From IMG/VR virus record IMGVR_UViG_3300030376_002826, positions 1-25,151 of that record: a DNA stretch of 25,151 bases. One strand, written 5' to 3'. A program made the translations under genes and the position numbers. Below the pieces are notes generated by a model. That model saw only the letters and a program-made list of their open reading frames with translations. It had not been told where the DNA came from and ran no database searches. The DNA comes from a virus (lineage: Duplodnaviria > Caudoviricetes). This document shows positions 21,659-25,151 of the stretch, one piece after another. Position 1 is the first letter of the stretch. Every line of letters begins with the position of its first letter.

Positions 21659-22294
21659 ATGTGGGCTTATGTAAAAGATAACAAGATACAGGAACTTATA
21701 AAGTTTCCTAAACCAATGGTGATAGATGGAGTAAAGCATCCAAGACAAATCTTTACTGCATGGACTGCTGCTGAAAAAAAAGCTGTAGGAATACTGCCAG
21801 TTACTCCGGGAACTAAACTTGATAATAGGTATTACATATCTAACAATGAAACCTATGCGATTGCAAGTGATGGTAACTCTGTAGTTGGTACAATTACAAA
21901 AGCAAAAAACAAATCTCTTACTGATACGAATGAAGTCAATGAAGATGGATCTAAAATGCTTGATGAAAAAGGCAATCAAATTGTAACTCCGGGGCTGCGA
22001 ACTCTAGCGAAAAAAAAAGCAGATACAACAGCTTATAGTATGCTAAGTAGATTTAGTTGGTTAGTAGAGAGAAAGATTACAGCAGATGTTGCAATACCTT
22101 CGGAAGTAACAACCTTCATGACTAGTGTTAGAACTTCGCACAAATCAATATGCGATGCAATAGATGCGTGCAATTCAATGACCAAGTTTATTGCAATCCA
22201 TACTGATGAGTATAACGAAGATGGCACATTAAAAACTATTGCTAAGGTAAACGATTGGCCGGATGACTATGATATTAAGAGTTATTACAGATGA
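21659..22294 (+). CDS. Conserved hypothetical protein, possibly tail-fibre associated/assembly
   Basis: SD GGAGGTG; P.QIF..W...EK.A.GI, W.VERK, C-terminal DWP motif as in fibre-associated proteins; follows the receptor-binding genes. Confidence 0.55.
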   Translation: MWAYVKDNKIQELIKFPKPMVIDGVKHPRQIFTAWTAAEKKAVGILPVTPGTKLDNRYYISNNETYAIASDGNSVVGTITKAKNKSLTDTNEVNEDGSKMLDEKGNQIVTPGLRTLAKKKADTTAYSMLSRFSWLVERKITADVAIPSEVTTFMTSVRTSHKSICDAIDACNSMTKFIAIHTDEYNEDGTLKTIAKVNDWPDDYDIKSYYR

Positions 22295-22542
22295 CAGTTG
22301 AGCCGATATTTATATGGAGTGGATTATTGTCAGTTATTATAGGGATGCTCTCTTATATGTTCACTACTCTGGTACGAAAAGTACAAGAATTGCAAGAGAG
22401 ATTAGTAAACACAAGAGAAAGTTACGCAACCAAAATAGAGATGAAGGACATGAAGCAAGACTTTCATCAAGACATAAAGCAAATACTAGATCAGTTAAAA
22501 ACATTGAACGAAAAGATAGATAACCTTAAAATTAAAAATTAA
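22291..22542 (+). CDS. Small membrane protein (one N-terminal TM helix plus coiled coil), lysis-region
   Basis: IFIWSGLLSVIIGMLSYMF TM followed by heptads and RESYATK.E; ATGA overlap. Confidence 0.6.
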   Translation: MTVEPIFIWSGLLSVIIGMLSYMFTTLVRKVQELQERLVNTRESYATKIEMKDMKQDFHQDIKQILDQLKTLNEKIDNLKIKN

Positions 22543-22620: not shown

Positions 22621-23247
22621 ATGATAGATCCAATATCAGCATTGGGCATTGCCACTGCTGCATTTAATACAATTAAAAAAGGCTTTGAAGTTGGTAGAGA
22701 TCTAGATTCTATGTATGGAGATATGGGTAAATGGATGGGTGCTGTTTCCGATATAAACCAAGCAGAGAAGCAAGCTAAGAATCCACCTATCTTTAAAAAG
22801 ATATTTGTAGGAGCAAGTGTAGAGGAAGAAGCATTAAATGCTTTTGCTGCAAAGAAGAAAGCTGCTGCTATGGAAAAAGAGCTAAGGGAGTATATTGGGT
22901 TTACTCATGGCCCTAATGCGTGGCAAGAGTTATTGCAGATGCAGGCAAAGATACGAAAAGAAAGACAAGAGATGATATATAAGCAGCAAGAAAAAAGAAG
23001 AAAGCTTATGGAATACTCTTTTATAGGTGTCTTTGGTCTTATAGCTATATATATTTTTTATTTATTTGTTGCTTATTTATTAACTATTAAAAGTGTAAGG
23101 TCGCATGACTGCACAATCTTTCATCCAGATTTAGCAACACACTATTATTTCTTGTGCGTTAATGAAGGGCCGGGGGTAGCTGAAAATAAAAGAGAGCAAG
23201 ATAAAAAACACATTGATGACACAACTATAATTGTAGAGGAGGAATAA
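22621..23247 (+). CDS. Conserved hypothetical membrane protein in the lysis region
   Basis: MIDPISALGIATAAF amphipathic N-terminus, helical body, TM helix YSFIGVFGLIAIYIFYLFVAYLL, short tail with two Cys. Confidence 0.65.
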   Translation: MIDPISALGIATAAFNTIKKGFEVGRDLDSMYGDMGKWMGAVSDINQAEKQAKNPPIFKKIFVGASVEEEALNAFAAKKKAAAMEKELREYIGFTHGPNAWQELLQMQAKIRKERQEMIYKQQEKRRKLMEYSFIGVFGLIAIYIFYLFVAYLLTIKSVRSHDCTIFHPDLATHYYFLCVNEGPGVAENKREQDKKHIDDTTIIVEEE

Positions 23248-23621
23248 TGTTACAAGCATTACTAGGGCCAATAGGAAATATTGCCACAACATTTTTAAAG
23301 AACAGAGCAGAGAAAGCAAAAGCAAAACAAAAACTTGCAGTTGCAAAGATAGAAGCTGCAACAAAAAAAGTTCAACAAGATGGAGACTGGGAAGCTGCTG
23401 CAATGGATGCTAGTAAGGATAGTATTAAAGATGAGTTGTGGACAGTTACATTTATATTATTAATAGTTGCTTGTTTTATACCAGCAGCTCAACCTTACAT
23501 AGAGAATGGATTTAAATTTTTAAGAGAGGATTGCCCTGATTGGTTATCTTGGGGTATACTAGCAAGTATAGGAGCTAGTTTTGGACTGAAGTCTATGACA
23601 AAGTTCATTGGTAAAAAATAA
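23247..23621 (+). CDS. Holin-like protein (GTA-type 3TM holin-like)
   Basis: MLQALLGPI, DWE......S.KDELWT, hydrophobic segments, ASFGLK; directly upstream of lysozyme. Confidence 0.65.
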   Translation: MLQALLGPIGNIATTFLKNRAEKAKAKQKLAVAKIEAATKKVQQDGDWEAAAMDASKDSIKDELWTVTFILLIVACFIPAAQPYIENGFKFLREDCPDWLSWGILASIGASFGLKSMTKFIGKK

Positions 23622-23631
23622 AGGAGCAATC

Positions 23632-24078
23632 ATGAATAAAGAATTGTTAGAAGTTATTAAGATAGAAGAGGGTACGAAAAAAAAAGATGGTAAACATATT
23701 CCCTATAAATGTAGTGAAGGTAAGCTTACAATCGGATATGGATTACTTATAGATCCAGAAGTTCCCGGAGGTGGCTTGACAGATGTGCAGGCAGAGATGT
23801 TGTTAAGAACAACTGTCGATACAATGCTTGTAGAATTATACAACAGAATACCTTGGTACAAGGATCAACCAGAATCAATTAAGATAGCATTAGCAAACAT
23901 GGCGTACCAGTTAGGAGTTCCTAAACTGTTACAGTTTAAAAAGACACTAGATCATATTGAGCATGGAAGGTATGGTATGGCAGCAGCAGAGTGTCTTAAT
24001 TCAAAGTGGAATCAGCAAACTCCAAATAGAGCCAAGAGAGTTGCTGATGTTTTTCAATCTTATGCAAAAGGAGAATAA
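23632..24078 (+). CDS. Endolysin, T4-type lysozyme (GH24)
   Basis: ATG at 23632 with SD AAGGAG; EEG...YKCSEGKLTIGYG, NMAYQLG, and AAAECLNSKWNQQTPNRAKRV closely matching T4 lysozyme SRWYNQTPNRAKRV. Confidence 0.92.
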   Translation: MNKELLEVIKIEEGTKKKDGKHIPYKCSEGKLTIGYGLLIDPEVPGGGLTDVQAEMLLRTTVDTMLVELYNRIPWYKDQPESIKIALANMAYQLGVPKLLQFKKTLDHIEHGRYGMAAAECLNSKWNQQTPNRAKRVADVFQSYAKGE

Positions 24079-24080
24079 AT

Positions 24081-24200
24081 ATGCCGGGTTACATGAAGAA
24101 AAAAACAGGAATGAAAAAAAATAAAAAAACTGCTATGAAAAAAGCAGGAACAAAAAAGATGAAAATGAAAGCAGGTAAAAATAAAAGGTCTATGTATTAA
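24081..24200 (+). CDS. 39-aa Lys/Met-rich basic mini-protein (not in ORF track)
   Basis: MPGYMKKKTGMKKNKKTAMKKAGTKKMKMKAGKNKRSMY; SD AAGGAG; stop overlaps next start (TAATG). Confidence 0.7.
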   Translation: MPGYMKKKTGMKKNKKTAMKKAGTKKMKMKAGKNKRSMY

Positions 24201-24355
24201 TGAAGAAACAACTTACAGATAGACAGAAAACCACACTCAAAAAACATAGCAAACATCATACTGCAAAACACATGACAGAGATGCGTAAGCTGATGCGAGG
24301 TGGTAAAACTTTTACTCAATCACATAAAATTGCAATGAAGAAAGTGGGGAAATAA
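24200..24355 (+). CDS. 51-aa basic His-rich mini-protein (not in ORF track)
   Basis: MKKQLTDRQKTTLKKHSKHHTAKHMTEMRKLMRGGKTFTQSHKIAMKKVGK; TAATG coupling at both ends. Confidence 0.75.
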   Translation: MKKQLTDRQKTTLKKHSKHHTAKHMTEMRKLMRGGKTFTQSHKIAMKKVGK

Positions 24356-24492
24356 TGCCATTTACCAAATACAGTTCTAAACAAAAAAAGTTAGCAAGAG
24401 TTGCTAGTCCTAGAAATAAAATTACAGGTGCAGACTTTGCAAAACTTAAAAGAAAAAAAGGAATGAAAAATGGCGGTAAGAAAAAAGTCTAA
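24355..24492 (+). CDS. 45-aa basic mini-protein (not in ORF track)
   Basis: MPFTKYSSKQKKLARVASPRNKITGADFAKLKRKKGMKNGGKKKV; TAATG start; 23-nt overlap with next ORF. Confidence 0.7.
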   Translation: MPFTKYSSKQKKLARVASPRNKITGADFAKLKRKKGMKNGGKKKV

Positions 24493-24661
24493 ATCAAAAG
24501 TTAATGCTGCTGGTAATTATACCAAACCTACTATGAGAAAAAGATTGTTTAATCAAATCAAAGCAAGTAATTCTTATGGAACAAAAGCTGGACAATGGAG
24601 TGCTCGTAAAGCTCAAGCTTTAGCACGTCTTTATAAAAAGAAAGGCGGAGGGTATAAGTAA
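24470..24661 (+). CDS. 63-aa basic protein, N-terminal half of a DUF5872-like family
   Basis: NYTKP.MR.R....IKA...G.K.GQWSARKAQ.LA..YKK.GGGY motif; no acidic residues. Confidence 0.75.
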   Translation: MAVRKKSKSKVNAAGNYTKPTMRKRLFNQIKASNSYGTKAGQWSARKAQALARLYKKKGGGYK

Positions 24662-24906
24662 TGGCATTAGCAAAATCACAGAGAAGTCTTAAAGCTTGGG
24701 GTAAGCAAAAGTGGCGTACTAAATCAGGTAAGAAGTCATCTGTAACTGGTGAAAGATATTTACCATCCGCTGCAATCAAAGCCCTTTCCCCAGCAGAGTA
24801 TGCTGCAACCACTAGGGCAAAACGTAAAGCAAAGAAAGCAGGCAAGCAAGTTAGTAAGCAACCTAAACGTATTGCTAAAAAGACAGCTAAATACAGGAGA
24901 GTATAA
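24661..24906 (+). CDS. 81-aa basic protein, C-terminal half of a DUF5872-like family
   Basis: SQRSLK.W.KQKW.TKSG...ERYLP..A...LS..E...T.R.KR...GKQ; TAATG coupling. Confidence 0.75.
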   Translation: MALAKSQRSLKAWGKQKWRTKSGKKSSVTGERYLPSAAIKALSPAEYAATTRAKRKAKKAGKQVSKQPKRIAKKTAKYRRV

Positions 24907-25151
24907 TGGCTGATAAGCAACCACCCAAAACTAAAAAGTATTTTCGATCTACTAAGTCTGGTGCAGGTATGACCAAAGCAGGTGTAGCTAGATACAGAAG
25001 AGAGAACCCCGGATCTAAACTTAAGACTGCTGTTACTGGCAAAGTAAAAAAAGGTAGTGCAGCAGCTAAAAGAAGAAAGTCATATTGTGCTAGAAGTGCA
25101 GGACAGATGAAGAAGTTTCCGAAGGCAGCAAAGAACCCTAACTCTAGATTG
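24906..25151 (+). CDS. Basic protein, DUF6321-like, 3'-truncated (not in ORF track)
   Basis: MADKQPPKTKKYFRSTKSGAGMTKAGVARYRRENPGSKLKTAVTGKVKKGSAAAKRRKSYCARSAGQMKKFPKAAKNPNSRL; open to window end; TAATG start. Confidence 0.75.
   Translation, partial: MADKQPPKTKKYFRSTKSGAGMTKAGVARYRRENPGSKLKTAVTGKVKKGSAAAKRRKSYCARSAGQMKKFPKAAKNPNSRL

Follow-up and report, generated by a model that had tools for sequence, protein, structure and literature searches.

Six coupled genes for basic proteins in a phage late module

The DNA analysed here, which we call the window, is a whole viral contig of 25,151 bases, estimated to represent 72% of its genome. Its gene content is that of a podophage late module, with terminase, portal, capsid, tail proteins, internal virion proteins, fibres, a probable holin and a lysozyme. 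The capsid protein shares 63-70% identity with its counterparts in HTVC010P and other pelagiphages (best 15 records), and by sequence the contig is assigned to the HTVC010P-type marine podophages; phages of this type and related marine phages are very abundant. Tandem phrog_831 paralogues of 71 and 73 aa occupy the terminase-portal interval (1304-1742, + strand), the first with a long proline run, and an ORF at 3985-4827 matches phrog_458, labelled 'protease', but has no Pfam match.

A probable holin with three transmembrane segments (23247..23621, + strand; phrog_2524, and GTA_holin_3TM at E 7e-4, under the cut-off) is followed by an endolysin of the phage lysozyme family (23632..24078, +; PF00959, E 3e-8), and immediately 3' of the latter begins a run of six + strand ORFs, A to F. 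ORF A (24081..24200) encodes a Lys/Met low-complexity peptide of 39 aa with a net charge of +16; it has its own AGGAG ribosome-binding site and no match in Pfam or PHROG. ORF B (24200..24355) encodes a His/Lys-rich protein of 51 aa (phrog_31838), and ORF C (24355..24492) a 45-aa member of a small, basic and conserved family that has no library name. ORFs D (24470..24661; 63 aa, phrog_17747) and E (24661..24906; 81 aa, phrog_14910, with a predicted helical fold) supply the N- and C-terminal halves of a split DUF5872-like domain. ORF F (24906..25151) belongs to DUF6321 (PF19846), its 82 aa being open at the window end. TAATG joints begin at 24198, 24353, 24659 and 24904, and C and D overlap by 23 nt, all as the first-pass annotation had described. 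The absence of four of the six from the automatic ORF track, also remarked there, is consistent with A, B and C falling below a 60-aa cut-off and F leaving the window.

A recount of the charged residues gives exactly the totals first estimated by hand, 117 Lys+Arg (89 Lys, 28 Arg) against 7 Asp+Glu in 361 aa. The six products have pI values of 10.9-11.7 and net charges per residue of +0.27 to +0.41, whereas the 24 further ORFs of the window that were examined lie between -0.08 and +0.08. When the region was shuffled 1000 times with dinucleotides preserved, we found at most two such ORFs, covering at most 29% of it, where the observed six cover 100%.

A second contig, L261, matches the window at 99.4% identity over 3151 bases and continues past its end. 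There F is complete at 91 aa and is followed, just beyond the window end, by a seventh basic ORF, G (L261:3470-3604), of 44 aa, with two Cys and a more hydrophobic N-terminal helix. The earlier count of at least six ORFs thus stands for the window and rises to seven in L261. A tyrosine integrase comes after ORF G in L261, which suggests a temperate phage.

Conservation and selection

ORF A is intact in close relatives; against relative L259 it differs by four synonymous and four non-synonymous codon changes, in a comparison whose start motif missed three of the eight close loci. ORF B was confirmed in 493 of 512 candidate IMG/VR stretches, with four synonymous and no non-synonymous changes against L259, and pN 0.32 and pS 0.69 against phage Hodr. 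After removal of saturated or near-identical pairs, median pairwise dN/dS was 0.39 for C (9 of 10 pairs kept), 0.17 for D (1362 of 2485), 0.12 for E (1276 of 3003) and 0.19 for F (75 of 105), and no pair among those kept exceeded 1. These codon comparisons indicate purifying selection on C, D, E and F. A chance or artefactual origin of the ORFs is ruled out by the shuffles together with this selection, and the view that these are real, conserved genes of a late module is upheld.

An estimated 6500 or so stored IMG/VR stretches carry ORF E (598 of 599 scanned were confirmed), as do 17 records of cultured phages infecting Pelagibacter, Roseobacter, Puniceispirillum and Methylophilales, and seven different pelagiphage records share it at 79-85% identity. 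Contigs of relatives span the region in one metatranscriptome (word share 0.06), an occurrence without weight as evidence of transcription.

A cassette without fixed membership

The first-pass annotation had proposed a stoichiometric set, and a fixed set does not survive comparison with relatives. Of 88 E-anchored loci, 79 also hold D and 42-43 hold F, but only 7 have C, a single one B and 0-2 have A; C occurs in 28 of 80 B-anchored loci. The number of small basic ORFs per E-anchored locus has a median of 5 and a maximum of 9, drawn from about twenty families. The cassette is variable and gene-swapping, without fixed membership or order. It lies in the late module in the window and in the cultured relatives viewed, and in other phages it is found upstream of, or separate from, the lysis genes.

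The clearest exchange involves D and E. Four relatives (L259, L263, L264 and L265) follow the window as far as the first codon of D and resume the match where F begins, and the three of them that were mapped carry another coupled basic pair in place of D+E, one member of which is DUF5824. Relatives with this clean replacement are about 83-87% identical to the window upstream, and all genes observed to be swapped into the cassette are strongly basic. The replacing pair in L264 (L264:2771-3183) consists of 66 and 70 aa, and its 70-aa ORF aligns only to positions 70-124 of DUF5824; judging from this alignment, DUF5824 may be split in the same way as DUF5872. We saw no co-occurrence of D+E, the second DUF5872 subtype and DUF5824, but after dereplication the exclusion is not significant (p 0.6-0.9).

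Two ORFs upstream of the holin gene deserve mention in their own right. The first (22291-22542, +; 83 aa) has a hydrophobic N-terminal segment and a coiled-coil-like tail, and is possibly an inner-membrane spanin-like or second holin-like protein. The second (22621-23247, +) encodes a phrog_32327 protein of 208 aa that has a hydrophobic segment in its interior; ORFs resembling it lie immediately 5' of E in both HMO-2011 and CRP-1, and L259 has a divergent version in the slot.

D and E as halves of a DUF5872-like domain

The six proteins had been described as unrelated in sequence. D and E indeed show no similarity to each other, but they are two parts of one domain family. D lies upstream of E in all 78 viral loci that hold both as separate genes, and the two are fused, D before E, in phage Hodr and in long polyproteins of other viruses. 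Pfam scans of window D, window E and the Hodr fusion gave no DUF5872 match at E<=1; a family search of the contig also gave none, but its control matched nowhere either. Eight long D-E fusions all span most of the 116 model positions of DUF5872, two scoring above the 27.5-bit cut-off (30.7 and 29.7 bits) and six at 22.5-25.3 bits, and the Atlas gave a DUF5872 cluster at 0.90. By these sequence comparisons D and E together make up one DUF5872-like domain that has been split in two, and since neither window ORF alone matches the model, the form found here is a divergent one.

The same unit occurs on bacterial chromosomes. Among 80 GTDB loci we found a permuted E-D fusion in 30 and a D-E fusion in 6. 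All 30 permuted genes are from Pelagibacteraceae (SAR11), 29 of them 138-142 aa long (for example L129:3998-4414, L145:3989-4417 and L158:3998-4414, with 27 more GTDB loci). Housekeeping genes surround the seven that were mapped, a short-chain dehydrogenase lies immediately 5' in 20 of 28, and the median dN/dS of the permuted genes is 0.15. A quick tree, rooted at the midpoint, places the SAR11 genes in a single group among the viral rows (SH-aLRT 99). A full-length fusion was found in only 9 of 251 genomes of the family, three of the nine being search seeds. In L129 the gene sits between TspO and a DUF1365/CMAS/DUF3833 cluster, a light or oxidative-stress cluster in other alphaproteobacteria. 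Separately, phage late genes ending in D-E (L090:342-4246) lie among host genes on a 399-kb SAR11 single-cell contig and are likely a prophage. The SAR11 copy suggests that the D+E activity can be of use where there is no capsid. This agrees with nucleic-acid binding and, equally, with an intracellular role.

ORF F and an exclusive slot

ORF F scores 43.6 bits against DUF6321 when truncated by the window and 47.2 bits at full length (cut-off 28.5). A DUF6321 query matched 550 phage records, mostly of cyanophages; in P-SCSP1q the gene lies immediately 3' of the capsid gene. In the cassette, F appears to occupy a slot that is exclusive with phrog_7595. After 90% dereplication the two occurred together in none of 93 clusters (49 and 29 alone; 15.3 expected; p 2e-13), and after 80% dereplication in none of 56 (p 2e-9), the counts being drawn from partial genomes and mutually related loci; control families in the same test showed no exclusion. 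DUF6321 and phrog_7595 may be remote homologues. A link of phrog_7595 or F to DUF5754/Tlr6F (E 0.051; Atlas 0.77; HHalign of F against F6 42%) is a lead from profile comparison, the equivalence of the two names coming from the accessible part of PMC12220804.

Part of phrog_220, 'minor head protein and DNA pilot', is matched by phrog_7595, and a protein of this type occurs at 55-57% identity in spindle-shaped viruses of Nitrosopumilaceae (BK067786, BK067787). This distribution points to a capsid-independent ligand such as DNA. Cassette families occur in viruses of cyanobacteria, archaea and algae, and the algal virus CpV-BQ1 has both DUF5872 and DUF5754 annotated. For Tlr6F, the accessible part of one report on PgVV particles gives sub-threshold peptides only (bioRxiv 2022.07.28.501842).

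Cyanophage polyproteins and their presence in virions

In large cyanophages the homologous modules are parts of long polyproteins. T4-GC119 of S-SM1 (SSM1_115), P-SSM2 (PSSM2_123) and S-CREM2 (ORF137) all contain DUF6321, which in P-SSM2 and S-SM1 forms the end of a protein encoded next to gp15/gp16; F is 44% identical to SSM1_115 over 68 aa. The links of D and E to these proteins are, by profile comparison, transitive only. SSM1_115 modules match D through an intermediate family (HHalign 92.5% and 92.9%), an SSM1_115 module matches the C-terminal half of DUF5872 (97.6%), and a second split DUF5872 subtype ties D to module M3 and the C-terminal half to M1. Direct HHalign comparison gave 3% for E against M1 and 6% for E against the intermediate family, and a direct homology of D and E to P-SSM2 modules suspected by eye was rejected when 82 and 178 of 200 shuffles scored equally high. 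For B and C no match to the cyanophage polyproteins was found.

The T4 prohead protease gp21 cuts after Glu, and Glu recurs at the borders of the modules. Across 74 polyproteins the modules are basic (K+R 26%, D+E 8.5%) and the remainder neutral (17%/17%). Of 42 distinct contexts, 38 have a Glu two residues before the anchor of DUF6321, and all 42 have one within four residues (background 34%); a Glu also lies within three residues before M1 in 28 of 28 and within eight before the Cys-Trp (CW) module in 52 of 55, though within eight before M3 in only 30 of 43 (background 54%); the contexts share descent and the counts lack independence. The tails of longer E proteins were taken from 120 proteins, with 50 duplicate tails, 12 C-terminal cases and 4 without an anchor set aside; Gly-Gly occurs within 11 residues in 39 of 54 distinct tails (background 9%), and 7 start with Ala-Glu. 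In the window the Gly-Gly motif is present in B and C only and is kept in 15 of 46 and 1 of 26 relatives; A-F have no acidic leader, and the candidate Gly-Gly packaging signal, found in two of six, is poorly conserved. Several large proteins of unidentified viruses (P0084, P0014, P0019, P0028 and similar ones) consist of Ala-Glu-bounded modules, including fused D-E and a Cys-Trp module, and one Ala-Glu-modular protein also holds a pterin dehydratase domain.

Homologue-bearing polyproteins appear in two of the four cyanophage virion proteomes considered. With the columns of Table S8 of PMC3037559 assigned from the main text and gene sizes, T4-GC119 was detected in purified virions of S-SM1, where it gave 13 counts and the capsid protein 119, and the accessible part of the same paper gives its Syn9 orthologue as not detected. 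S-CREM2 ORF137 was detected with 4 unique peptides and 4.1% coverage (PMC10665884, Table 3). The 30 virion proteins listed in PMC9146016 do not include S-SZBM1_192, which looks DUF6321-like on inspection. The two detections are at the level of the whole polyprotein, with peptides not placed on modules, and sticky basic proteins can co-purify with virions. A further protein, S-SCSM1 A0A6M2ZIM9, is labelled 'Virion protein'; the accessible text of PMC9602691 did not confirm its detection, and it is left uncounted. In the accessible list for S-SZBM1, a hypothetical 87-aa protein encoded beside the terminase small subunit, S-SZBM1_195 (L255:5378-5641), ranks third by abundance index in the virion; it is not a member of the basic cassette.

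Predicted folds and little hydrophobic face

The description of the whole set as protamine- or H1-like fails on the character of the chains. Only A is of low complexity. E is predicted to fold with AF2 pLDDT 89 and pTM 0.71, and F with pLDDT 79, while D, E and F have invariant Trp/Tyr/Gly columns and aromatic cores. The E model had no Foldseek match in the PDB at E<=0.001, a best VIA Z of 3.0 and nothing meaningful in the sequence profile; the best VIA Z for F was 4.1, with no informative solved match, and BFVD gave good scores for apparent homologues only. A predicted D+E complex scored 0.00, which carries no weight either way.

Large hydrophobic residues make up 12-22% of A-F and the maximum 19-residue hydropathy is at most 0.35; we found no membrane segment and no lipobox in any of the six. 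Their best helices contain 2-5 hydrophobic residues per 18, compared with 8 in G, which by composition is the cassette's best candidate for a membrane-active peptide. In hydrophobic moment E alone exceeds its shuffles (2 of 500 as high), in a segment with two hydrophobic residues, while 70 of 500 shuffles match G.

What the cassette products may do

We favour, at a probability of about one half, the reading that A-F are DNA-associated internal head proteins working like the internal proteins of T4. We do so because of their charge, their position in the late module, the polyprotein architecture, the two virion detections and the T4 precedent. The first-pass annotation had assumed that tailed phages mostly do without basic core proteins, a premise that is incomplete, as the T4 head holds some 1000 internal proteins with lysines that touch the phosphates of the DNA (accessible part of PMC3012670). 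In large T4-like phages, the prohead protease would free the basic modules from a polyprotein; in the window phage, stop-start coupling would supply the proteins already separate. The products would then ride in the head touching the DNA, neutralise part of its charge, and shield or chaperone the genome both inside the capsid and once it has been ejected. The slots of such a cassette would be DUF6321 or phrog_7595, probably a two-gene DUF5872 or DUF5824 unit, and low-complexity Lys-rich fillers such as A.

It is possible, if doubtful, that the proteins act in the cell without being packaged, by late binding of the host nucleoid, RNA or ribosomes or by protecting replicating phage DNA. The permuted SAR11 gene is under selection where there is no capsid, the 79-85% identity of E in seven pelagiphage records is what a conserved target would produce, and two virion proteomes (Syn9 and S-SZBM1, in the accessible parts) lack the homologue. 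The other two (S-SM1 and S-CREM2) contain it, however, the Glu-delimited polyproteins beside gp15/gp16 suggest head maturation, and a fusion in 9 of 251 family genomes looks like patchy capture and not a core host function.

Alternatively, the proteins might be packaged and then injected as counter-defence or takeover effectors, one host factor per slot, as T4 IPI* acts against a restriction enzyme. Rapid cassette turnover, including the clean D+E replacement, and the mutual exclusion of DUF6321 and phrog_7595 would suit such a role, and T-even internal proteins are described as a diverse defence set in the accessible part of PMC3012670. We nevertheless think it unlikely: every observed swapped-in gene is strongly basic, the core families are under strong purifying selection with no pair above 1, unlike an arms race, and the same families recur in viruses of cyanobacteria, archaea and algae.

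The original proposal, a stoichiometric protamine- or H1-like set condensing the whole genome into a nucleoprotein core, now seems very unlikely. A net charge of +115 per six-protein set (F complete), translational coupling and a Lys-rich low-complexity peptide in A speak for it. Full neutralisation of an assumed 35-kb genome would, however, take about 610 sets, or some 30,000 nm3 of protein with about 37,000 nm3 of DNA in an assumed head of 87,000 nm3; the composition of the set varies and is Lys- and not Arg-rich, and the virion counts in Table S8 are low, though trypsin undercounts such proteins. As full neutralisation is implausible by volume, partial neutralisation, protection or chaperoning is likelier than a protamine core. 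A role as virion nucleoproteins does have indirect support, from the polyproteins with homologous modules in two of the four cyanophage proteomes.

Last, as had also been proposed, cationic peptides might disrupt the outer membrane in place of spanins, in the manner of the amphipathic lysis peptides typified by phiKT gp28; this is the least credible reading. In its favour, the holin and endolysin genes precede the cassette, the stretch beyond 21600 (in a contig 72% complete) showed no lipoprotein spanin, and the helix of G is the most hydrophobic. Against it, A-F have little hydrophobic face and no membrane segment, neither the moment of E nor that of G is persuasive, and in other phages the cassette lies away from the lysis genes.

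Returning to the internal-head reading, it is tempting to speculate further that DUF5872, DUF6321, DUF5824 and Tlr6F-like domains make up a so far overlooked set of folded core nucleoproteins common to tailed phages, spindle viruses of archaea and giant viruses of algae. Large phages would make them as protease-cut polyproteins and small podophages as pre-cut coupled genes, with exclusive slots, and the member captured by SAR11 would be a cellular DNA-protecting protein. This wider scheme is tentative, and we would not expect all of it to hold.

If the products do prove to be core proteins associated with DNA, functions could be assigned to several widespread DUF families, and basic internal proteins would no longer be a peculiarity of T4 but general among marine tailed phages. 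Cassette genes are annotated merely as hypothetical, or overlooked because they are small. Cultured carriers (HTVC033P, HTVC034P, HTVC035P, Lederberg and HMO-2011), a naturally fused two-gene unit, an exclusive slot and a host copy make the proposal directly testable.

Relation to known systems

Basic internal proteins are already known from T4, and the families are catalogued DUFs; new at this locus are a DUF5872 unit that is split and cleanly exchanged, a slot in which DUF6321 is exclusive, and the permuted gene of SAR11. In the literature searched, outside which most subscription journals lay, we found no account of the function of DUF6321, DUF5872, DUF5824, DUF5754 or the cassette, DUF5872 surfacing as a table entry. 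In Pfam terms F is DUF6321 (PF19846), fused D+E homologues reach DUF5872 (PF19197), the pair replacing D+E includes DUF5824 (PF19141) and the tie to DUF5754/Tlr6F (PF19058) is weak; all are uncharacterised.

Adenovirus protein VII, baculovirus P6.9, protamines and histone H1 are small, highly basic, Arg-rich or of low complexity, and abundant. The cassette products resemble them in size, basicity and proposed neutralisation of DNA charge, but Lys dominates in A-F, E and F are predicted to be folded, and only A is like an H1 tail. T4 IPI-III are closer: small proteins, with lysines touching the packaged DNA, from a locus that is variable among related phages, proteolysed in T4 to their mature form (accessible part of PMC3012670). 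A-F differ in showing no sequence similarity to them in Pfam and PHROG scans and no identified capsid-targeting sequence, in lying in a podophage late module, in belonging to families common to unrelated viruses, and in being only predicted to be packaged. T4-GC119 shares DUF6321 with F, and its S-SM1 and P-SSM2 modules are transitively linked to D and to the C-terminal half of DUF5872. There the modules are joined in one polyprotein by acidic, Glu-ending linkers, whereas in the window they are separate, coupled genes.
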